Shown: in pieces, positions 27,649 to 38,784 of the stretch
Position numbering within the stretch: the stretch's first letter is position 1
Layout: the number at the start of each line of letters is the position of its first letter
Assembly (NCBI GenBank): GCA_963702005.1
Contig: OY969696.1
Span: forward strand, 4,000,001-4,064,000
Direction: 5' to 3'
Length of the DNA stretch: 64,000 nucleotides
From: Candidatus Aminicenantes bacterium
GTDB taxonomy: Bacteria; Acidobacteriota; Aminicenantia; Aminicenantales; JAFGBC01
Position numbers and translations under genes: made by a program
The notes under the pieces: model-generated
Seen by the model: the letters and a program-made list of their open reading frames with translations, nothing else
What the model was told of the DNA's origin: nothing
Databases searched by the model: none

Positions 27649-28911
27649 CTATTTTTGAGAGCGCAGACGGCGGGAGACCTCGATGACGTTGCGGAAGACG
27701 CGCAGGGTGTTTCCGCTCCAGATCTTCTCGATCTCCCGATCGCTGAATCCGCGCCGGATGAGCTCCTCGCTGACGTGCACCATCCCGCTCACGTCGTTGC
27801 AGCCGGTGACTCCGCCCCCGCCGTCGAAATCCGTCCCGATTCCGACGTAATCGATGCCGATGACGCGCCGGACGTGGTCGATGTGGTCGACCAGGTCCTT
27901 GACGGTCGCCTTGTTTTCGGGATACTTCAGGTCGAGCGCCTCGTATTCCGCCCGGAGCTTTTTCCGGGTCTCCTCGTCCTTGATATCCCGGTAGGATCCG
28001 TAGGTCTTCTGAAGCTCCTGGAGGGCCTTGGTCCGCTCCGGGTTGGGCGGCGTCGCTTTGACGTAGGCCGACAGAAAACAGATCTGGATGACGCCGCCGT
28101 TCCGGGCCAGGGCGCGGAGCATATCGTCGCTGAGGTTGCGGGGGTTGTCGCAGACGGCCCGGGCGCAGGAGTGGGAGGCGAGGACGGGAGCCTGGGAAGC
28201 GGCCAGGATGTCGGCGAAAGATTTGTCCGAGGCGTGGGAGACATCGACGATCATCCCCAGGCGGTTGCATTCCCAGACGACGGAGCGGCCGAATTCGCTC
28301 AGGCCGTCGTCCTGGGGACGGCTCCGGTCGGTCGAGGAATCGCAGATATCGTTGTCGGCGGTATGAACCAGGGTCAGGAGCCGAACCCCCCGATCGTAAT
28401 AATCCCGGACGAGGCCGAGGTCCTTCCCGATCGGGTAGCCGTTCTCCATGCTGAAGAAGGCGATGAGCCGGCCTTGCTTTTTGAGCCGCAGGGCGTCTTC
28501 GGGCGTCAAGGCCGGGCCGATCAGCCCCGGATAATCGCGGCACATGCCCTGGACGGCTTCGATTTCCTTGAGGGCGGTCTGGCGGGCCGCTTCGTATCCC
28601 TCGGGCGTCCGCGGCCCCTGGCCGACGAAGGCGGCAAAGAATTCCGCGTCCAGGCGTCCCTCTTTCATGCGGGGGAGGTCGATCCGCCCGCTTCCCGGGA
28701 GAGACGGGTCGTGGCGGTCCCCGATTTTCCAGTCCGAGCGCATGATGTTGAAGGGCGTGTCGCAGTGGGTGTCGATGGACAGGATCCGGTCGTGGAGGCG
28801 GCGGGCGCGCGCCGCGATATCCTCCGGGGACTGGGACACCCGGCAAGCGAGCGCTCCCATTCCGAACACGATCACGCTTAGAACAAGGGGGCCGATTTTT
28901 CGCGAGGTCAT
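27649..28911 (-). CDS. Membrane dipeptidase (M19), probable lipoprotein
   Basis: DTHCDT, DVSH, ASHS, PRNLSD, DHIDH and GTDFDGG motifs, lipobox ALAC. Confidence 0.93.
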   Translation of the reverse strand: MTSRKIGPLVLSVIVFGMGALACRVSQSPEDIAARARRLHDRILSIDTHCDTPFNIMRSDWKIGDRHDPSLPGSGRIDLPRMKEGRLDAEFFAAFVGQGPRTPEGYEAARQTALKEIEAVQGMCRDYPGLIGPALTPEDALRLKKQGRLIAFFSMENGYPIGKDLGLVRDYYDRGVRLLTLVHTADNDICDSSTDRSRPQDDGLSEFGRSVVWECNRLGMIVDVSHASDKSFADILAASQAPVLASHSCARAVCDNPRNLSDDMLRALARNGGVIQICFLSAYVKATPPNPERTKALQELQKTYGSYRDIKDEETRKKLRAEYEALDLKYPENKATVKDLVDHIDHVRRVIGIDYVGIGTDFDGGGGVTGCNDVSGMVHVSEELIRRGFSDREIEKIWSGNTLRVFRNVIEVSRRLRSQK

Positions 28912-29028
28912 CGTTTCTCCTTTGCGGGGACGGCGGTCTCTCCTTAAGTTTGTGATTATAGCATAAACGGGGGGCAAGCGATCCGGGACGGGAGTCGACA
29001 CGTCCTCCGCGCAGGGGCGGCGACATCC

Positions 29029-31350
29029 TCAGAACGTCGTACCGACGGCAAATCGGAACGCGAAGTTGGAGGTCTCTCCGCTGAAGCGGCGGCTGTTATA
29101 GGCGAAAATGAGCCGGAACGGGACGCGGAGGGCGGGGACGAACACCCTCATCTCCAGGCCTGCCGAGGAGCACAGGTTCCCGAGGCTCACGGTCTCATGA
29201 CGGGCGAACGCATTCCCGGCATCGCAGAAAAGGATCGCGTAGAGCGGACCTCCGACCGGAACGATATATTCGGCGTTGAGCACCAGGGACTTTTCGCCGC
29301 CCACGTTGACCCCTTGATCGCTGCGGGGCCCGATCGAATAGATCTCATAGCCCCGGATGGACCTCTCCCCGCCCAGATAGAACCTCTCCCAGAAGGGGAC
29401 TCCCGAGCGCCCGGTCGGCTTCACGAACTCATACCGGACATGAAGGCCGAGCACGTTCTTGGCCAAGAGGGGATGGTAGAAAGTCCACTCGAATTGGGGA
29501 TTGATGAGATCGACCTCGCCTCCCAGGATCCCGCCCGCCAGCTTGCATCCGACCAGATAGAGCGTCCCCCGGGTCGGAGTCAAGGGGCTATCCACCGTAT
29601 TTCGGAAGAGGACCGCCGAGAGGCTGCCGATGTAGTAGTGCCCGTATCCGTAGCCCCCGCCGTAATAATAAGGATTATAGGCTGACGTCGCCTCATCGCT
29701 CGAGGAGCTGACCGCACCGACGTCCGTGTATTCGAACCCATAGGAAAGGTTCGTCATCCAGAAACCGACCGCCCGGACGCCCAGGTTGTACTTGATGCCT
29801 CGGGATTGCTGGCTGAACAGGCCGGGATAGTAGATGTAGCGATTGTAGATGTCGAAGCCCAGGCTCAGGGGCATGTCAAAAACGTAGGGCTCGGTAAATC
29901 CCAGCGAGTAGTTTTTGATGCGCTTGCCAACCTGGCCCATCAACTCCAGGTTTTCTCCCGTCCCCAGAAAGTTGACCGTCGAGTAGCTCAGGGAGATGAA
30001 GGTGCCCTCGTAGCCGCTGTAGCCGGCCGAAAACTGGATGTTGTTCCGCTGGAGCTCCTTGACGTTGACGGTGACGTCTAATTTGGTCGGGTCCCCGGGA
30101 TCGGGTTTGAGTTCCGGCTCTTTCTCGAGGTCGACGATGCCGAGCTGCTTGATTCTCAGGACGCTGTCCTTGAAGAGGGCCAAGCTGAAGCGATCGCCCT
30201 CCCGGATGAGCATTTCGCGCCGGATGACCTTGTCTTTGGTGAAGGTGTTGCCCTTGAATTCGAGCCGGTCGAGATGGGCGACCTCGCCTTCCTGGATGGA
30301 AAAAGTGACCTGGACGCGCTTGCCCTTGGGGTCGAGGGTTTCGACCGGGACGATCTGCGTGTAGAGATAGCCGAGGTTCCGGTAGAGCTCTCCGATTTTC
30401 TCGACGGCCTTTTCCCTGAGCTTGGCGTTATAGACGACGCCCTCCTTGAGCTTGATCATCGAGCGGAGGGCGGGAACGGACAAGATCTTGGGACCCTCGA
30501 TCTTGACGTCGCCGACCGTGTAGCGCTCGCCCGCCCGGATCGGGATGACGATGCGCTTCATCGCCTGTTTTTTTAGGAAAATGGTCCTCTTAGTCGTCTC
30601 CTCGATTCGGGGCTCGCCGAGCGTGGCTTCCATATAGCCTTTTTCCCTGAGCGCGGACTTCAAGCGGGACAAGTCTTCGGCGAGCTTGTCCGCCTTGAAG
30701 ACGTCCTTGCCGCCGATCCAGGACAGCAGGCCGTGCTTCTTGTTGTCTTTCATGGCCGCGGCCAGGACGCTGGAGTGGACCGGAGGGTCCCCTTCGAAAA
30801 CGACCTCTCCGACCCGATTCCGCGGCCCTTCCTTGATGTGAAAGACGATCCCCAGCTCGTTGTTGTCCCGGACGGAGCGCTCAACCCGGACTTCGCCGCC
30901 GGCGAGGCCCTTCTCGGCGAACATCTCCTCGATCGCCTTCGTGATCCGCTGGATCTTGCCGGGGCTGGCGTAGGAGTAAGGAAGCGGGTAGCGGTCCTTC
31001 TCCTTGAGCTTGCCGACGATGTCGTCGGCCTTGAGCTTTTTTCCGCCCTTGAAGCCGACCTTCTTGATCACCGGATTTTCCTCGACGATGATCCTGACGG
31101 TCTTTCCGGAGGATCCCTGGTCCGCCTCCATCTTGATATCGGCGAAAAAGCCGGTCGACCACAGAATCTTGAAGTCGCGCCGCAGCGCGTCTTCGTTGAA
31201 AAAGTCGCCCTCCTTCAAAGTCAGATAATAGAGGATCGTCTCCCGGGTCACTCGCCGGTTTCCGACGGTCTCGATGCGATTGACGATCTCTTGTCCGAAC
31301 AGGAGCGGCGCCCCGAAGACAAGGATCAGGAGTCCCACCGCCTTTTTCAT
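29029..31350 (-). CDS. bamA: Outer membrane protein assembly factor BamA (Omp85)
   Basis: Signal peptide, five POTRA domains (last: GNTFTKDKVIRREM), FYLGGERSIRGY loop, terminal F. Confidence 0.93.
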   Translation of the reverse strand: MKKAVGLLILVFGAPLLFGQEIVNRIETVGNRRVTRETILYYLTLKEGDFFNEDALRRDFKILWSTGFFADIKMEADQGSSGKTVRIIVEENPVIKKVGFKGGKKLKADDIVGKLKEKDRYPLPYSYASPGKIQRITKAIEEMFAEKGLAGGEVRVERSVRDNNELGIVFHIKEGPRNRVGEVVFEGDPPVHSSVLAAAMKDNKKHGLLSWIGGKDVFKADKLAEDLSRLKSALREKGYMEATLGEPRIEETTKRTIFLKKQAMKRIVIPIRAGERYTVGDVKIEGPKILSVPALRSMIKLKEGVVYNAKLREKAVEKIGELYRNLGYLYTQIVPVETLDPKGKRVQVTFSIQEGEVAHLDRLEFKGNTFTKDKVIRREMLIREGDRFSLALFKDSVLRIKQLGIVDLEKEPELKPDPGDPTKLDVTVNVKELQRNNIQFSAGYSGYEGTFISLSYSTVNFLGTGENLELMGQVGKRIKNYSLGFTEPYVFDMPLSLGFDIYNRYIYYPGLFSQQSRGIKYNLGVRAVGFWMTNLSYGFEYTDVGAVSSSSDEATSAYNPYYYGGGYGYGHYYIGSLSAVLFRNTVDSPLTPTRGTLYLVGCKLAGGILGGEVDLINPQFEWTFYHPLLAKNVLGLHVRYEFVKPTGRSGVPFWERFYLGGERSIRGYEIYSIGPRSDQGVNVGGEKSLVLNAEYIVPVGGPLYAILFCDAGNAFARHETVSLGNLCSSAGLEMRVFVPALRVPFRLIFAYNSRRFSGETSNFAFRFAVGTTF

Positions 31351-31361
31351 GTCCGGCCCTT

Positions 31362-32018
31362 TCAAGTCTTACCGAATCGGTAGAGAAGGCCGATGGTCAA
31401 CCCGAGAAAGTCCTGCTGGGTGAAGTCATCGGTCCCGAATTTGTCGACGTCCCGCGAAAACAGGTAGTGATATTTGAGCTCGGCGGTCAGGAAGACCTTG
31501 GAGAAAAGATAAGACTCGACGCCCAACCCGATGTTGAATCCCGGGCTGGTGTCCGAGAAGCTCTCGGCCGGTTGGGAGGGCGCCGGCCAGGCTTTTCCCC
31601 ACAGGGCCGTCTGGCTGAAGCGCCAGGGGTAAATCCCGATCCCAGCGGTCAGGTAGGGTTCGACCACATAGCCGGAGCCGAGGGAGAACGTCGCGTTCAA
31701 GGATATCATCTGGATATTGAGGGCGGGAGCCTGTTCTTTGTAGGCGTAGGGCCGCTGGGCTTTCTTGACCGACAGCCATTGGAAAGCATAGCCGGCATCC
31801 AGGGCCAGGTAATCGTTGACTTGATAGCGGAGCGCCGCGCTCAGGCCGGCCCCGATGTTGACGACGCTGGAAAGCTTCTCGGTATCGCTGTAGCTGCCGC
31901 CGACGGCCAGGATCCCTCCCGGGCTCAGCCTGAAGCTCAGCCGATTCCATAATTGGCCGGCCCCCGCTCCGGATACGATCAGCAGACAGACCGCCAAGCC
32001 CAAACTTATGCGCTTCAT
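31362..32018 (-). CDS. Small outer-membrane beta-barrel protein
   Basis: Signal peptide, amphipathic strands, PYLTAGIG, GFNIGLGVE. Paralog of 32607..33314. Confidence 0.85.
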   Translation of the reverse strand: MKRISLGLAVCLLIVSGAGAGQLWNRLSFRLSPGGILAVGGSYSDTEKLSSVVNIGAGLSAALRYQVNDYLALDAGYAFQWLSVKKAQRPYAYKEQAPALNIQMISLNATFSLGSGYVVEPYLTAGIGIYPWRFSQTALWGKAWPAPSQPAESFSDTSPGFNIGLGVESYLFSKVFLTAELKYHYLFSRDVDKFGTDDFTQQDFLGLTIGLLYRFGKT

Positions 32019-32028
32019 GATGGACACC

Positions 32029-32610
32029 TCAGCGGAGGCCGATGACCTCGATCGTCCAGGCATAGTCCTTGTTCTCCTCGATTTTGATCGTGGTCGACGC
32101 GACTTCCCGCCCGTCGCTGAGCCGTGTCGCCTTGAGATACCGCTCGCCCATGGGGACATCCATGATCCAGCGGTTTTCGTCGTCGGCCAGGTCGAACCGG
32201 TATTGACCGTCCATGGACACGGCCACGTCGATCCCCGAGTTGTTGGTGACGTTGATGTCGGGCGGGTTGTCGATCGTCCAGGAATAGTCGATCTTGGAGG
32301 TGACGTCGATCGTCGTCGAACCGATGACGATATCGGTCCCGGTCCGCTTGGCCGTCAGGACATGCTCATCGAGAGAGACGTCGTCGATCTCGATCGTCAT
32401 CTTGTTGGCGATCGTGAACTTGAATGCGCCGTCCATGTACAGGTCCGCGGCTTCCCCGTAATCATTGACGATGATGATATCGGCCTCTCCCCCGCTGGGG
32501 CTGGTCGGGCTCTTGCAGCCGGCCGCGGCCAGAGCCAGGGCCAGGATCCCCAAGGCGATCAGGCCGCTCCGCAGCGTCCGCGGCCTCAAGCCCGCCGGTT
32601 GGGCTTTCAT
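32029..32610 (-). CDS. Lipoprotein with two tandem ~70-aa beta-rich repeats
   Basis: Lipobox AAGC, internal repeat ending in DY.WTI, ATGA-coupled to the upstream barrel gene. Confidence 0.85.
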   Translation of the reverse strand: MKAQPAGLRPRTLRSGLIALGILALALAAAGCKSPTSPSGGEADIIIVNDYGEAADLYMDGAFKFTIANKMTIEIDDVSLDEHVLTAKRTGTDIVIGSTTIDVTSKIDYSWTIDNPPDINVTNNSGIDVAVSMDGQYRFDLADDENRWIMDVPMGERYLKATRLSDGREVASTTIKIEENKDYAWTIEVIGLR

Positions 32611-33314
32611 TTCTCGGCGTCCTCGTCGGTTTCGGCCGATTCGCCGCCGCCGAAATGAAAGACGAGTCCGGCCCGGATGCCCAGAAAACCCTGCCGGCCG
32701 AAGCCGTTCGTCCCGAATTTCGCCGCGTCCTTGGCGAACAGCAAATGATAGTCGGCCTCGGCCGAGAGGAACAGCCTCGACCAAAGCTTAATTTCGATCC
32801 CCAGCCCTCCGTTCAAGTCCAGGCTGGTCTTGGAGAACCGTTCGTCGCTGTTGTCGGGAACGGCCAGATACGATCCTCCAAAAGCTTGGGAGCTGACTCG
32901 CCAGGGACAGAGCCCCATCCCCAGCGTCAGATACGGCTCGACGCTTCCCCCCGAGGCGAGGAACACGGTCCCGCCCAGCGTATACATGGGGAGGACCAGG
33001 GCGGGTTTCTGGTCCGTATAGCCGGAGGGCCTTTTCTCGGCCTTGAGGAACATCCAGTTGTAGCCGTAGCCGGCGTCGAGGGCAAGATGGGGGGCAAGGC
33101 GATAGCGAAGGACGAGGCCGAGTCCGGCGCCGGGAATGACCGTGTCCCGAAGGGTTGCCGAATCGCTGTAAGCCCCGTGGATCGAGAGCAGCATCCCAGG
33201 ATGGAGGCCGATGCTGAGATAGCGTGCATACTCGGCCCGAGACGTTCCTACGGCCGGGATCGCCAGGAGCATTATGGCGATGAAACGTTTGATCACGGCG
33301 GCCCCGCTTGTCAT
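32607..33314 (-). CDS. Small outer-membrane beta-barrel protein
   Basis: Signal peptide, LDAGYGYNW, PYLTLGMG, NGGLGIE. ATGA-coupled to the upstream lipoprotein. Confidence 0.85.
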   Translation of the reverse strand: MTSGAAVIKRFIAIMLLAIPAVGTSRAEYARYLSIGLHPGMLLSIHGAYSDSATLRDTVIPGAGLGLVLRYRLAPHLALDAGYGYNWMFLKAEKRPSGYTDQKPALVLPMYTLGGTVFLASGGSVEPYLTLGMGLCPWRVSSQAFGGSYLAVPDNSDERFSKTSLDLNGGLGIEIKLWSRLFLSAEADYHLLFAKDAAKFGTNGFGRQGFLGIRAGLVFHFGGGESAETDEDAEK

Positions 33315-33898
33315 TGGATCGTCCATGTGTAATCCTTGTTGGCCTCGACGTCGATCGTGGTCGAGGCCACCTCCTTGCCGTCGCTGACCTTGAGCGCCTT
33401 CATGAAATGCTCCCCGAACGCGACATTCATGATCCAGCGGTTCTCTTCATCCGCCACGTCGAAGAGATACGTCCCGTCCATGGTGACCTTCAGGGACACT
33501 CCGTATTTGTTGGTCACGTTGATGTCCGGGGGGTCGCCGATCGACCAGGTGTAGTCCTGGTAGGCGGTCACGTCGATGGTCGTTTCATCGACGACGGTGG
33601 CCGTGCCGGCCCGCTTCGCCTGGAGGTCGTGCTCGTCGAGCGAGACATTATGGATCTTCTTGCTGTCGCCGTCCGCCACGGCAAATTGAAACGTCCCGCC
33701 CATGTAGATGTCAAGCGTCTCGCCGTAGCCGTTGCTGACGATGATTCGAGCTTGCTCATCGTCGCTGGTCGTGGTCGTGTCGGATTTGGGGCCGAAAATG
33801 CTCTCGCAGCCGGCCAAGACCAGGACCAGAATCGTGGTCACGATCAGAAGACCGATGCTCACAATAAAATCCCATTCAGGCTTCTTCCTGTGTGTCAT
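33311..33898 (-). CDS. Lipoprotein with two tandem ~70-aa beta-rich repeats
   Basis: Lipobox LAGC. Paralog of 32029..32610 (shared PPDINVTN, ENRWIM, EVASTTI). Confidence 0.85.
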   Translation of the reverse strand: MTHRKKPEWDFIVSIGLLIVTTILVLVLAGCESIFGPKSDTTTTSDDEQARIIVSNGYGETLDIYMGGTFQFAVADGDSKKIHNVSLDEHDLQAKRAGTATVVDETTIDVTAYQDYTWSIGDPPDINVTNKYGVSLKVTMDGTYLFDVADEENRWIMNVAFGEHFMKALKVSDGKEVASTTIDVEANKDYTWTIQ

Positions 33899-34030
33899 AT
33901 AAAACCTCGCCTCTCTATCGTCCTCTCGTTAGATGACGGCGGTCCGCGATCCATTCCGGCCCCGCGCAAAATAATTGACCGGGCCGGGTTTCAGGGAAGA
34001 GGGGAGCCGCCGTGCGCCGGACGGCCGCGG

Positions 34031-35388
34031 CTAATCGTGACGAAGGGCCTTGACCGGGTCGACCAGCGCGGCCCGGTGGGCGGGGTAGATGCCGGCGGCC
34101 AGGCTGACCGCGACGGCGAAGCCCAGCGCCCCGGCGAACAGCCACCAAGGAAAGGCGAAGTAATCGATGGCCGGGACGCCCTGCCGGGCGAGCAGGACGT
34201 TGACGATCCGGTTGATGACCCGGCTGACGACCCATCCCAGTCCATAGCCGAACAGCCCGCCGGCGAAGCCGATGATGCTCGATTCAAAAAAGAAGACGGC
34301 GCGGACGTCCCCGTCGCCGGCCCCGACGGCCTTCATGATCCCGATCTCGCGGGTCCGCTCCAGGATCGACATGACCATGGTGTTGACGATCCCCAGGGCG
34401 GCGACGAAGATGGCGATCATGCCGATCGCCGCCAGGATCATGTCCAGGTAGAAGAAAGCCCGGCGGACTTCGCTGAATTGGTCGGCCAGGGCGAAGGTCG
34501 AAAACCCCATTTTCTTAATTCGGGCTTTAACGGCCTCCAGATCCCGGGGAGAGGACAGCCGGACGTTGAGGGCGGCGTAGCCTTTCGTCCCCTCTTGGAG
34601 ACGAAAGATGTCCCAGATGCTGGTGAAGGGGAGCTTCTTGATCTTGCCGGCCGCCCCCGGCGGAATCATCAGCTCGTTCCAGACCGATCCCGGCCCAAAG
34701 CCGGTGCTCTCGCTGACGCCGACGATCCTGAACTCATAGGTCTCTTGGGAGACCGGGAGCTTCCCTCCCTGGAAAATCGAGGATAAATCCATGGGATTGA
34801 GACGGCCCAGGTCGAACGACACCGACGCGATCTCGATCGGCTTCCCGACGGCGGAGGCCGGATCCTTGATATCGAGGCGGCGGAGGAGATATTCGTTGAC
34901 GATGATCTCGTCGGCATCGTCCGAGAGATACGGTTTCCCCGACCTGAGCTTGATCATCCGGGAGGCCGCGATCTTGGCCGGCAGGATCTGGACCAGCCGG
35001 AACTCCTCGCGGCCGTTGAACCGGACCAGGGCGGGGAAGCTCAGGTCGGGATAGACGGAGTCGACGCCCCGGATCTTGGAGATATCTTCGAGCGCCCGGT
35101 CGTCGAGGGCGGTCTTGGCCGCTCCGGACGGGACTCTCCTCGGCTGGGACGGGTTGGGCCTGTCCGGGTCCGAGCCGCCCGGTCCCGACCCCGACGGGAA
35201 GACGGTGATCGCGTTGAAAAGCTCGAGGCTGTTAAAGGTCTCGGTCACGTTCTTCTGCATGCCGGTGCCGAAGGACATCATCGAGACCAGGGCGCCGATC
35301 CCGACCACGACCCCGGCCGTGGTCAGAAGGGTCCGCAGCTTCACCTTCCAGAGGTTCGACAGCGAGAGCTCGAGATGGTCGCGGAACC

Positions 35389-35392
<4 letters not shown>
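34031..35392 (-). CDS. MacB/FtsX-type ABC transporter permease
   Basis: KLRTLLT, large periplasmic domain, ERTREIGIMKAVGA, YPAHRAA..DPVKALR. Confidence 0.93.
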
Positions 35393-36117
<725 letters not shown>

Positions 36118-36175
36118 CGCATGTCCTGGACTCTTTTTAATACGTAAAAATTCCGCCCGGGATTATCGCCGACCG

Positions 36176-36221
36176 ACTGAAGCCCCGCGGACTTACGTCC
36201 GTGGAATCCCGCGAAGGGGAT
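36176..36221. repeat. Short (single-hairpin) copy of the palindromic element at 43194
   Basis: ACTGAAGCCCCGCGGACTTACGTCCGTGGAATCCCGCGAAGGGGAT. The last 34 bp are identical to 43285-43318. Confidence 0.8.
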
Positions 36222-36303
36222 CGACGCATTTGAAATCATTTGTTTTTTATTATAACGTAACTGTCCTTGAGGAAAAAATCCGCGAAGGAACGAGGAGGCG
36301 CCG

Positions 36304-38784
36304 ATGATAACCGCCTTGATGAAAATCATCCGGATCACCCTGGCCGTCCTGATTGTCATCCCGTCCCTGCTGTGCGCGTCCCTGGAAGTCCGGTCGGTGA
36401 CGAAGGCCCAAGACCTGCCCGAGCCCTTCTGCGGCGCCTGGCGGAGCGGGGATTGGCTCGTCTCGAACGGCCGGTTCCTGGCCCTCGTGGGCGGAACGGA
36501 CCGGACCCTCAAGACAACGCTCAACCTCCCGACCGGAAGCCTCAAGGGGAGCATCATCGGTTTCGTCCCGGCCGGAAAAGGATTGGCCAATACCTTGATC
36601 ATAGGCGCGCCGGCTCTCCTCATCAAGGACCGGACTCGATACCTGACTTATGAATCCGCGCGCCCTCTGCCGGGTCAAGCCGGCCGGACCCTGTCCTTGG
36701 AATGCGATGCCCGATACGGGGACGCGAACGGGCACAAGGCGCGAGTGAAGACGACCTATCGTTTCAGCGCCGGGTCGGACCGGATCGAGATCCTCTCGAC
36801 TTTGACCAATACCGGCAGCGCGGCCTTCAAGGACCTGGGCTTCTACATCTATTTCAACGCCCAGAGCTCCTATTCCTTCAATCCCTACAATCGGGAGCGC
36901 TTCCCCGGCCTCAATTTCCGGGTCTACCAGAAGCCCGGCCATTTTCTGGGCTGGATCAACCCTAATCCCCTGCCGTCCGAAGACGATCCCCTGCCCGGGA
37001 CCCTCGCGCCCGGAGCTTCCTACGCCGTCCGCTATTATCTGTTCGTGGACGAGAAGCCCGAAACCCTCCTGGCCTCGATCTACCGGGAACTCAATATCAA
37101 GCCGCTGACGGCCCGGCTGTTCTTCGAGGAGTATCGGGGCGATCGTCTGGAGGTCATCGTGCGCGACCCCGTTTCCACCTCGACCTTCTTCCGGGCTTTC
37201 CTCGAAAATCGGCCCGGCCAGGACGCCGTCCTTCCCGCGGGAATCTACGAGGTCACGGCCAATCTCTTCCCCGCCGTCGCCAAGAAATACTTGAACGTCA
37301 CGCCGGGCGTCGCGGCCGAATGCGTCTTCAAGGCCCCGGCGCTGGCTACCGTCAAGCTCAAGCTCCAGGACGGGCTGGGCAAGCCCGTCCCGGGCAAGGT
37401 CACCTTCATCGGCCTCTCCCCGACTCCGACGCCCTATTTCCAGCCCACTGATCCGATCGCGACCGGGCGGGGCTGGGAAGGGTTCAGAAATCACGTCTTC
37501 CCCAAGGCCAAAAGCGAGGAGGTCGCGCTCCCGGCCGGGAGCTATCTCGTGACGGCCTCCTGCGGTCCCGAGTATTCGATCGAAGAGGAGGTCGTGAGCC
37601 TCCTCGAAAATGACAGTCGCGAGATCGTCATGACCATCGACAGGGCAGTGCCGACGCCCGGCCTCATCGGCCTCGACCCCCATCTGCACACCCAGTTCTC
37701 GGACGGGAGCAATCGGATCCCGGACCGCGTCCTGTCCCTGGCCGCGGAGGGCGTCGACGTGGCCGTAGCCACGGATCACAATTTCGTCAACGATTACGCG
37801 CCGGCCCTGGCCGAGCTCGGGCTCCAAGACCGCCTGGCCGTCTTCTCTGGGACCGAGGTTACCGCACCCGACAACTTCATTCACTTCAACGTCTATCCCT
37901 TGACTCCGGCGCCCGACGAGGACAACAACGGGGCGGTCTCGGCCTTGGGAGGGAGCCCGGAAGCCCTGCTCGCGGCCGCCCGCGAGAAGTCGGCCTCGGC
38001 CCTGCGTCAGCTCAACCATCCCCGCTCCGGCAGTCTGGGCTTCTTCAACAATTACGACCTCGACCCGGAGGCGGCCGCCTCGGCCTCGCCCGGGTTCAGC
38101 ACGGACTTCGACGTCATGGAGGCCATGAACGGCCCGGTCTTCTACGGGGGAAACGATCGGGCCGTGGCCGACTGGCTTCATCTCCTGAACCGAGGCTATT
38201 TCTTCCCGGTCGTCGGCTCCTCGGACACCCATGCCATCGACGGCGAGGAGCCGGGCTATTCCCGGACCTATGTCAGGTACACGGGCGGCGAGGGCCGCGC
38301 CCTGGACCGGCCCGCCCTCTTCGACGCCGTCCGCAAAGGGCGTTCATTCGTCTCGAACGGGCCGATCGTCGAGCTCAAGGTCGACGACCGCGCCGAATCC
38401 GGGGATACCCTGACCAGCCGCGACGGGAAGGTCTCGGTCCAGATCGAAGTCCGTGGCGCGCCCTGGCTCGACGTCGACGAAGTCTGCCTGATCATCAACG
38501 GCGAACCGGGCCTCATATTCCCGGTCGAGCCTTCTCATGGCGCCGTGGGGAAGTTCCGCCAGCGGGTCGGCCTGACTCTCGCCCGCGATTCGTACATCGT
38601 CTGCCAGGTCATGGGGAGGCGGCCGCTCTATCCCGTCGTCCAGGTCAACGCCCGGAGCGCCGAAGAGGCGGCCCTGCCCTACGCCATCACGAACCCGGTC
38701 TTCATCGACGTCGACGGGAACGGGCGCTACGACGCGCCTCTCCCCCGCGAGATCCGGATCGGCGACGGGGCCCGGAAACCCTGA
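36304..38784 (+). CDS. CehA/McbA family (PHP-domain) metallohydrolase, secreted
   Basis: DPHLHT.FSDG, ATDHN, NHPR, GSSDTH, GRSFVSNGP, TNPVFID. Confidence 0.9.
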   Translation: MITALMKIIRITLAVLIVIPSLLCASLEVRSVTKAQDLPEPFCGAWRSGDWLVSNGRFLALVGGTDRTLKTTLNLPTGSLKGSIIGFVPAGKGLANTLIIGAPALLIKDRTRYLTYESARPLPGQAGRTLSLECDARYGDANGHKARVKTTYRFSAGSDRIEILSTLTNTGSAAFKDLGFYIYFNAQSSYSFNPYNRERFPGLNFRVYQKPGHFLGWINPNPLPSEDDPLPGTLAPGASYAVRYYLFVDEKPETLLASIYRELNIKPLTARLFFEEYRGDRLEVIVRDPVSTSTFFRAFLENRPGQDAVLPAGIYEVTANLFPAVAKKYLNVTPGVAAECVFKAPALATVKLKLQDGLGKPVPGKVTFIGLSPTPTPYFQPTDPIATGRGWEGFRNHVFPKAKSEEVALPAGSYLVTASCGPEYSIEEEVVSLLENDSREIVMTIDRAVPTPGLIGLDPHLHTQFSDGSNRIPDRVLSLAAEGVDVAVATDHNFVNDYAPALAELGLQDRLAVFSGTEVTAPDNFIHFNVYPLTPAPDEDNNGAVSALGGSPEALLAAAREKSASALRQLNHPRSGSLGFFNNYDLDPEAAASASPGFSTDFDVMEAMNGPVFYGGNDRAVADWLHLLNRGYFFPVVGSSDTHAIDGEEPGYSRTYVRYTGGEGRALDRPALFDAVRKGRSFVSNGPIVELKVDDRAESGDTLTSRDGKVSVQIEVRGAPWLDVDEVCLIINGEPGLIFPVEPSHGAVGKFRQRVGLTLARDSYIVCQVMGRRPLYPVVQVNARSAEEAALPYAITNPVFIDVDGNGRYDAPLPREIRIGDGARKP

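Follow-up and report, generated by a model that had tools for sequence, protein, structure and literature searches.

A lipoprotein, β-barrel and BamA gene cassette of Aminicenantales behind a conserved ECF-type promoter motif: a candidate envelope-stress operon

We analyzed a stretch of 64,000 nucleotides from the genome of an Aminicenantes bacterium (order Aminicenantales; contig OY969696.1, positions 4,000,001 to 4,064,000), referred to below as the window, and focused on a compact five-gene unit on its minus strand that encodes two lipoproteins, two small outer membrane barrels and a paralog of BamA. Gene starts and junctions were taken from a reading of the sequence, and coordinates are positions within the window unless a genome or locus is named; the source genome itself (G000) is a single 4.31-Mb contig. 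From the promoter motif to the end of bamA2, the unit spans 29029-33957 and consists of the following elements:

33929-33957, minus strand: extracytoplasmic function (ECF)-type promoter motif GGAAT-N19-TCTAA, 30 nt 5' of the lipoA ATG
33311-33898, minus strand: lipoA, 195 amino acids, a signal helix and then LAGC
32607-33314, minus strand: barA, 235 amino acids, with an alternative upstream ATG at 33326
32029-32610, minus strand: lipoB, 193 amino acids, lipobox AAGC and a short linker, paralog of lipoA
31362-32018, minus strand: barB, 218 amino acids, paralog of barA
29029-31350, minus strand: bamA2, 773 amino acids counted from the ATG (the listed open reading frame begins at a TTG, 31365)

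Start and stop codons overlap as ATGA at the lipoA/barA and barA/lipoB junctions, and gaps of 10 nt and 11 nt separate lipoB from barB and barB from bamA2. An earlier note on this DNA had described the same order, with ATGA overlaps or gaps of about 10 bp, two sets of paralogs, two repeats of about 70 amino acids in each lipoprotein after a Ser/Thr-rich tether, and the absence of usual bamA neighbors such as skp. The sequence reading bears out the order and spacing, apart from small start-codon corrections, and the paralogy, the repeats and the missing neighbors also stand, as detailed below. The tether is present in LipoA, where the linker is Thr/Asp-rich, and not in LipoB, where the linker is shorter (KSPTSPSGGE).

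LipoA and LipoB are 58% identical over 147 amino acids (E 1e-63), and within LipoA the first half shares 45% identity with the second over 69 amino acids (E 4e-19), DYTW(S/T)I terminating both. In an AlphaFold2 model of LipoA built from a 30-sequence alignment (mean predicted local distance difference test score, pLDDT, 87.1), an N-terminal helix and a low-confidence linker after Cys31 precede two 7-stranded β-sandwiches (residues 50-120 and 126-194). Cys31 of the lipobox is invariant in 30/30 aligned homologs. The A-type lipobox reads L-[AS]-G-C in 11 of the 14 sequences that share a C-E/D-S mature start, the others having I-N-C, I-C-C or Q-T-G-C, and the A-type mature N-termini are conserved as C-E-S-(I/L)-F-G-P (CESIFGP), followed by an acidic run. 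Judging by signal peptide and lipobox with invariant cysteine, LipoA and LipoB are predicted bacterial lipoproteins. In B-type lipoproteins, lipobox position -1 is often R, H, T or F (LIRC, LAHC, LVTC; compare window 32515-32535, minus strand), which is atypical for signal peptidase II substrates.

When the lipoproteins were compared with Pfam and NCBIfam, no family scored above its cut-off; DUF4397, a candidate for LipoA, was rejected at 17.9 bits (cut-off 30.6). Save for three stray automatic names, the 106 LipoA homologs have no source name or are called "hypothetical", and the four with a source-named organism are all from Aminicenantes. Structure comparisons of LipoA (Foldseek, VIA-align, ESM Atlas) led only to unnamed clusters and to sandwiches of a generic kind (prealbumin, Ig-like or PEGA-like); the extracellular domain of PepT1, domain II of carboxypeptidase D and pilins were among the matches, and Z reached about 9 for single domains. 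The modeled fold thus appears to be a generic tandem prealbumin/Ig-like sandwich, for which we claim no specific family. A profile search of 1.84 billion representatives gave 376 proteins at E <= 1e-3, some of them relatives of about 190 amino acids. Proteins of about 850 amino acids (P0153, P0161, P0165 and others) contain 5-8 tandem copies of the roughly 70-amino-acid sandwich domain; the long multi-domain relatives match BiPBP_C, DUF2846 and DUF4397 weakly, and PEGA is also found in one 1,666-amino-acid match. A third, lone lipoprotein paralog, 39% identical to LipoA, is encoded elsewhere in the source genome (G000:C1:3410476-3411043, minus strand; L015:8477-9043), with no barrel, BamA or ECF motif nearby, and similar lone copies occur in G013, G019, G028 and G033.

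BarA and BarB are 45% identical over 211 amino acids (E 2e-60). They have a signal peptide and match Pfam PF13505 (OMP_b-brl) above its cut-off of 28.7 bits, with 43.4 for BarA and 51.5 for BarB. The AlphaFold2 barrel model (pLDDT 85.6) has 8 long strands, and in Foldseek it comes closest to the OmpA transmembrane domain, NspA and OmpW (E-values 7e-9 to 1e-5). By family match and model, both proteins classify as putative 8-stranded OmpA/OmpW-like outer membrane barrels, the sole members of their barrel subfamily within the source genome. BarA-type proteins have an acidic tail after the last strand, which is absent from BarB-type proteins. Assignment to OmpA proper was rejected, as the match covers the barrel only, the peptidoglycan-binding OmpA_C domain is lacking and the NCBIfam OmpA score is 22.1 bits against 277, and PorG of the type IX secretion system was rejected for BarB (25.1 bits against a cut-off of 130). 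Because a word-based homolog search for BarA gave only 6 proteins, barrel relatives were taken from the loci. Complex prediction for BarA (residues 28-235) with LipoA (residues 31-195), with alignments, gave a score of 0.00 and a mark of 0.32, and is no evidence either way.

BamA2 scores 474.9 bits on the TIGR03303 BamA equivalog (cut-off 297.15), very close to the 472.9 bits of BamA1, the second full BamA equivalog among the six Omp85-domain matches in the source genome. It has five PF07244 POTRA stretches (171.8 bits) and an Omp85 domain, PF01103, at residues 465-778 of the listed open reading frame (162.2 bits, cut-off 24). In a pairwise alignment, BamA1 and BamA2 share the loop-6 motif SIRGY, a form of the (V/I)RG(F/Y) motif described as characteristic of the BamA family (PMC12611786). 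BamA2 therefore looks like a full-length BamA paralog with all hallmarks, and is predicted to have barrel insertion activity. The bamA1 gene (2,421,866-2,424,193 of the source genome) lies 1.6 Mb from the cassette, encodes a protein 62% identical to BamA2, and is embedded in the arrangement lolCE-lolD-bamA1-skp(OmpH)-fabZ-lpxA, which is found, whole or to the contig end, in 26/26 other genomes whose canonical locus was examined. Neither skp nor fabZ nor lpxA is beside bamA2, which has an M19 peptidase gene next to it instead.

Both BamA copies contain a Tyr/Gly-rich stretch in the barrel region (window 29626-29694, minus strand, about residues 553-575 of BamA2; BamA1 at L010:7867-10194; an example is SAYNPYYYGGGYGYGHYY). 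In sequence it is reminiscent of extracellular loop 3 (EL3) of Bacteroides BamA, which is reported to be rich in Tyr, Gly and Asn (PMC12578637). A third BamA-like class of about 915-970 amino acids (G000:C1:1425214-1427961, plus strand, in the source genome) has matches in 41/41 sampled genomes of the order and passes the TIGR03303 cut-off, alone or with neighboring stretches, in most of them. Three further, shorter Omp85 matches occur in the source genome.

The cassette was compared across 41 sampled genomes of the order and 5 more cassette genomes (G041-G045). Several of these are fragmented metagenome-assembled genomes (MAGs), and some record labels (Eubacteriales, Bathyarchaeia) conflict with the content: cassette contigs of Aminicenantes type (L047, of 2.5 kb; L041, L043-L046) are filed under Bathyarchaeia, Clostridiales or Eubacteriales MAGs, likely owing to mis-binning or automatic labels. 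In the pattern scan of the genome contigs, a pattern from a single protein brought up no relative and a 30-row alignment was too diverse; a 14-row alignment worked. The lipoprotein family is present in 9/41 sampled genomes, four of which have only a lone distant paralog (31-37% identity) without a barrel. In a sample of 401 genomes of the phylum it occurs in six, five of them within the order and the sixth with a weak single-domain match. The family is confined to the order Aminicenantales.

The cassette is present in 5/41 sampled genomes and is thus accessory, not universal. Eleven loci in 10 genomes, and in addition one 2.5-kb fragment, have cassette-type genes. The order lipoA-barA-lipoB-barB-bamA2 is intact in G000, G002, G041, G042 and G043; G044 and G045 also have it, with an extra lipoprotein gene inserted before bamA2, as does G016:C15, with frameshifted genes. 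The full order thus exists in the source genome and 7 further Aminicenantales genomes (one frameshifted), and the A and B lipoprotein types have orthologs in the same order elsewhere. The remaining loci differ. G011 has the order BamA-barrel-barrel-lipoprotein, and G016:C11 has lipoprotein-barrel-lipoprotein with no BamA within about 7 kb. In G008, lolCE-lolD is followed, after a gap of about 800 nt, by lipoprotein-barrel-lipoprotein running into the contig end, and a separate contig begins inside a BamA1-type gene and continues with fabZ-lpxA, so that the cassette may precede the housekeeping bamA across an unassembled junction. BamA adjoins the pairs at 9 of the 11 informative loci, the others being the one without BamA and the one at a contig end. 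Lipoprotein and barrel travel as a unit.

The number of BamA genes follows the cassette. All 36 cassette-less genomes of the order sample have exactly one BamA match of about 775 amino acids above 360 bits; the sole other high-scoring BamA frame among them is 2,167 amino acids long (G033, 315 bits). Two such matches of about 775 amino acids were found in G000, two in G011, and one plus fragments in G016. All five additional cassette genomes have two BamA genes, one with lolCE-lolD upstream and fabZ-lpxA downstream, the other with the cassette. A second BamA of about 775 amino acids was seen only in cassette-carrying genomes.

In a tree of 34 BamA sequences, 8 cassette-linked copies (all but that of G011) make up one side of a branch with a Shimodaira-Hasegawa-like approximate likelihood ratio (SH-aLRT) of 99, and because of this grouping BamA2 is taken to be an old paralog. 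The cassette-linked BamA of G011 is 76% identical to G011's own BamA1 and nests with it. An approximately unbiased (AU) test rejected all nine cassette-linked copies as one group (p = 0.0008), a test weakened by our having defined the group only once the tree was known. In G011, a younger or converted BamA1 copy thus appears to occupy the cassette place of BamA2, which would mean that co-regulation of BamA with the cassette genes arose twice or was kept through gene conversion, and which argues against a "dedicated" activity specific to BamA2.

Comparison of the two lineages points the same way. Among 7 BamA2 and 22 BamA1 sequences, only 3 of 773 residues (R177, Y507, N559) are fixed in BamA2 yet rare in BamA1. 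The clade consensus sequences are 64-88% identical per domain, with differences that are diffuse rather than in particular loops (loops not mapped on a structure). BamA2 orthologs are 60-71% identical to the window copy and BamA1 orthologs 59-67% identical to BamA1 of the source genome, suggesting similar constraint on both copies. With so few clade-specific residues and such similar constraint, a generalist insertase under different regulation fits better than a dedicated one, and a dedicated specificity of BamA2 is not supported by its residues.

The difference in regulation is suggested by the region upstream of lipoA. A scan of 28800-36400 for sigma-70 promoters and terminators gave nothing exceeding shuffles, and no site in the gap upstream of lipoA. 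Alignment of the regions 5' of lipoA brought out the motif GGAAT-N19-TCTAA, with GGAAT and TCTA invariant and at fixed spacing in 10 aligned regions. In 8 genomes, the distance from the end of the motif to the lipoA start is 27-32 nt; seven of them have the strict form and G042 has a TCTAG variant. In the window it matches once in 64 kb, where shuffles give an expectation of 0.04, and this match falls in the 132-nt gap between lipoA and the neighboring permease gene. The strict motif has 5 matches in the whole 4.3-Mb source genome, a count not unusual in itself, since neighboring spacer lengths give 1-5 matches each. Two of the five, however, stand directly before lipoA and directly before an ECF sigma gene, which fits autoregulation. 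Across 17 loci (252,292 bases) there are 19 copies of the motif, all in the 8 loci with a BamA-linked cassette, where they stand before the sigma gene, genes for lipoproteins of about 290 amino acids, or lipoA. The sigma gene is preceded by the motif in G000, G042, G043, G044, G045, G011 and G016:C15. No motif was found in the 18-kb bamA1 locus.

The sigma gene lies at 3.325 Mb of the source genome (L083:1769-2320). Its product scores 80.5 bits on TIGR02937 (cut-off 42.9), matches Sigma70_r2 and r4, and stays below the cut-off of the RpoE equivalog (87 bits against 236). The operon encodes the ECF sigma factor, a 137-amino-acid anti-sigma-like membrane protein that follows sigma in 8/8 operons compared, an LTXXQ (Spy/CpxP-family) periplasmic protein (Pfam 37.7 bits, cut-off 24.3) and a 299-amino-acid lipoprotein without family. 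In 7 of the 10 cassette genomes (G011, G016:C15, G041, G042, G043, G044, G045), this operon lies within 10 kb of the cassette, in varied positions: directly 3' of bamA2 in G041, directly 5' of lipoA in G042, and divergent from lipoA in G043 and G016:C15. In G011, sigma, anti-sigma, LTXXQ, lipoprotein, BamA, barrel, barrel and lipoprotein genes follow one another on one strand. In G044 and G045 the operon is about 6 kb downstream of bamA2 and lacks the fourth gene, and a homolog of the sigma-operon lipoprotein stands between barB and bamA2 with its own copy of the motif in front. The family of this lipoprotein of about 299 amino acids occurs in 32/41 genomes of the order. If it marks the whole operon, the sigma module is more widespread than the cassette, which then looks like an accessory member of the regulon. 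In two cassette-less genomes (G010:C249 and G023:C1), the housekeeping bamA1 cluster has a homolog of the sigma-operon lipoprotein about 6-7 kb away, a hint of a looser neighborhood of sigma module and BamA outside the cassette genomes.

Three genes flank the unit in the window:

35389-36117, minus strand: MacB-type ATP-binding cassette (ABC) ATPase upstream of the cassette, with LolD-like scores below cut-off
34031-35392, minus strand: FtsX/MacB_PCD permease directly upstream, 132 nt from lipoA
27649-29001: M19 dipeptidase, downstream of bamA2

We considered the ABC pair and the dipeptidase as parts of the system and rejected both. The ABC genes occupy this position only in G000 and G002 and are separated from lipoA by the motif, and the dipeptidase gene is found just 3' of bamA2 only in the same two genomes; G044 and G045 have an M19 gene of about 40% identity roughly 3 kb 5' of lipoA. 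G044 has an extra copy of the motif before a gene of the HlyD membrane-fusion family (L084:4694-6058). With the MacB-type genes upstream of the cassette in G000 and G002, this makes a link between efflux and the ECF regulon possible.

We propose, with confidence balanced about evenly, that the locus is an envelope-stress operon specific to Aminicenantales that co-induces a spare general BamA and two barrel-lipoprotein outer membrane modules. The ECF sigma factor would read GGAAT-N19-TCTAA before lipoA and drive a single transcript from lipoA through barA, lipoB and barB to bamA2. Upon induction, the cell would gain a second BamA insertase of general purpose and, with it, two 8-stranded barrels, each with its partner lipoprotein. 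BamA2 would raise or back up barrel insertion under envelope damage or if BamA1 is compromised, and the co-induced barrels would be among its substrates. The tight translational coupling and constant pairing suggest that barrel and lipoprotein act together as outer membrane modules, and we favor the idea that these are co-induced modules in need of extra BamA. The ECF-type promoter motif and the linked operon with its Spy-like gene favor an envelope-stress module over a surface-structure system. This regulatory layer was missed by the earlier note.

Several observations weigh against this proposal. The promoter and its sigma factor are predictions, as are dependence on that sigma factor, induction by stress, complexes of barrel and lipoprotein, and a generalist role of BamA2; a search of sequencing runs found no RNA run containing the locus (15 DNA runs, 4 with at least half of the query words, labeled wetland metagenomes). 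The motif is missing, even at 1 mismatch, from G008, where the genes lie behind lolCE-lolD, and from G016:C11, which lacks BamA. The sigma operon is about 0.7 Mb away from the cassette in the source genome, and it is neither on the 12-kb cassette contig of G002 nor on the G008 contigs seen. The anti-sigma match of the 137-amino-acid protein is weak (23.7 bits, cut-off 100). No BamA1 was found in G002 (83% complete), whose cassette-linked copy is the only canonical-type BamA seen there, and the trees are quick IQ-TREE runs, with the weakness of the AU test given above. Frameshifts affect lipoA, barB and bamA2 in G016:C15 (L035) and bamA in G011:C15 (L036), for which assembly error or decay are both possible explanations; the housekeeping loci of these genomes are mostly intact, though bamA1 of G011 is also split.

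The main rival to a co-induced spare BamA, which we regard as unlikely, treats barrels and lipoproteins as accessory subunits of BamA2 rather than clients. They would form an alternative holo-complex of the β-barrel assembly machinery (BAM), in which the barrel docks on BamA and holds the N-terminus of the lipoprotein. In its boldest version, which we judge no more probable, ECF sigma activation would induce a stress-only machine with two barrels on the wall of BamA2, each clamping the N-terminus of a tandem-Ig lipoprotein, a Bacteroidota-style BAM independently invented from unrelated parts. The precedent is reported from Bacteroidota, where BAM comprises BamA, BamD, the integral outer membrane protein BamG and the surface lipoproteins BamH-K or BamH/BamM, and where BamG binds the back of BamA and holds or anchors the N-terminus of the surface lipoprotein BamH (PMC12578637; PMC12611786). 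It extends to barrel and lipoproteins as partners of BamA and to the Tyr-rich BamA loop, which the Tyr/Gly-rich stretch of both copies brings to mind; in Aminicenantales, an association with BamA is hypothetical.

The fixed and translationally coupled order lipoprotein-barrel-lipoprotein-barrel-BamA in 8 genomes would suit such a complex. So would the fact that the genes have joined a different BamA in G011 and probably, in G008, the housekeeping bamA1, and the conserved A-type mature N-terminus (CESIFGP), as reported for that of BamH (PMC12578637). Yet the barrels are 8-stranded and OmpA/OmpW-like, whereas BamG is 14-stranded and FadL-type, and the lipoprotein folds differ as well. The genes are accessory, 36/41 genomes of the order doing without the cassette. 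The genes of G016:C11 stand without a BamA, the barrel:lipoprotein ratio varies (2:1 in G011, 1:2 in G016:C11), and BamA2 offers next to no clade-specific residues from which a docking surface of its own could be built.

According to the earlier note, each barrel partners or displays its cognate lipoprotein at the surface and BamA2 may be a dedicated assembly factor, which together would make up a system for export of a surface structure or adhesin. We consider this improbable and find no specific support for surface display or adhesin export. The pairing and coupling of lipoprotein and barrel genes would fit it, as would Ig-like sandwiches arranged in tandem on a flexible tether that is acidic or rich in Ser/Thr, an architecture often seen in surface proteins, and the 5-8 repeats of the same domain in the proteins of about 850 amino acids. 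However, no adhesin, pilin or secretion family was matched, and Foldseek on the lipoprotein repeat, which the note had suggested, returned only generic prealbumin/Ig-like folds. Within an 8-stranded barrel there is no lumen that could take up a folded domain, lone lipoprotein paralogs exist without any barrel, and the regulatory surroundings, an ECF sigma operon that includes a gene for a Spy-like protein, are not those of a surface-structure locus. As for the dedicated assembly factor, the sequence of BamA2 is not specialized and G011 uses a BamA1 copy in the same place. The note had also named three outcomes that would speak against it. Since the source genome has a second BamA and the pairs are conserved, the first two (a sole BamA, and pairs not conserved next to it) did not arise; on the third, the lack of a predicted lipoprotein-barrel interface, the complex prediction given above speaks neither way. 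What it observed is confirmed, and its interpretation is supported in part.

We give similarly little weight to the idea that BamA2 is a backup or decoy that keeps insertion going when a toxin, peptide or phage blocks BamA1, the pairs being ordinary members of the stress regulon. BamK of Klebsiella is reported to give resistance to macrocycles that target BamA, from which it differs on the outer surface (PMC13059784), and BamA2 is likewise complete and under a separate, predicted promoter. However, this idea leaves unexplained why the pairs persist beside BamA through the rearrangements in G011, G008, G044 and G045, and the consensus differences between BamA1 and BamA2 are diffuse and not concentrated in particular loops (with the reservation on loop mapping made above). 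That a duplicated bamA came to lie beside unrelated outer membrane genes by chance is very improbable and already disfavored, for although the flanks vary, the core order is conserved over at least four families' worth of divergence, a motif recurs at a constant distance, 7 genomes have the sigma operon in linkage, and a second BamA is confined to cassette genomes.

The proposed spare-BamA operon resembles several known systems in part. The sigma-E regulon of Escherichia coli includes the bam genes, skp and degP, and sigma-E is controlled by a membrane anti-sigma factor and an autoregulated promoter of the GGAAC...TCnAA type. The Aminicenantales system shares the ECF sigma factor, a similar predicted promoter and a predicted BAM target, and has a candidate anti-sigma factor (a weak match); however, sigma-E targets the housekeeping bamA and not a separate paralog. 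In E. coli, BamA also partners the flexible-linker lipoprotein RcsF with the barrels OmpA, OmpC and OmpF, a pairing tied to envelope-stress signaling. RcsF has no sequence or fold relation to LipoA and LipoB, whose partnership with the barrels we infer from gene pairing. The classic Bae regulon contains Spy, just as the regulon predicted here contains an LTXXQ/Spy-family gene.

The nearest parallel is bamK of Klebsiella pneumoniae, a BamA paralog reported to be activated by the BaeSR envelope-stress system and to be able to replace BamA (PMC13059784). Like BamK, BamA2 is a full-length paralog kept beside the essential BamA under an envelope-stress regulator, which in our case is predicted. The BamK regulator is a two-component system, whereas here it would be an ECF sigma factor, in another phylum (Aminicenantes). 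Two lipoprotein-barrel pairs are predicted to be co-transcribed with BamA2, and none are reported for BamK in the available text of that paper. BamA is also duplicated within genomes of Pseudomonas and Myxobacteria, for which differential regulation or substrate specialization was proposed (PMC4104836); the portion of that paper available to us describes neither a fixed lipoprotein-barrel cassette nor an ECF promoter. We found no description of a lipoprotein-barrel-BamA cassette in the literature, although supplementary files of the cited papers may list further contexts of BamA paralogs. A stress-regulated BamA paralog is thus of a kind already known from BamK. New here are the conserved ECF-type motif before lipoA, the linkage to the sigma/Spy-like operon and the two undescribed families of companion genes.

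BamA is essential and an antibiotic target, and why bacteria keep extra copies of it is an open question, to which the papers we found contain one experimental answer, BamK under BaeSR. The locus suggests that the logic of placing a spare BamA under a stress regulator has evolved in a distant, uncultured lineage as well, with a different regulator. The conserved barrel-lipoprotein pairs, with a lipoprotein family that is unnamed in the libraries, are candidates for new clients or partners of BAM.

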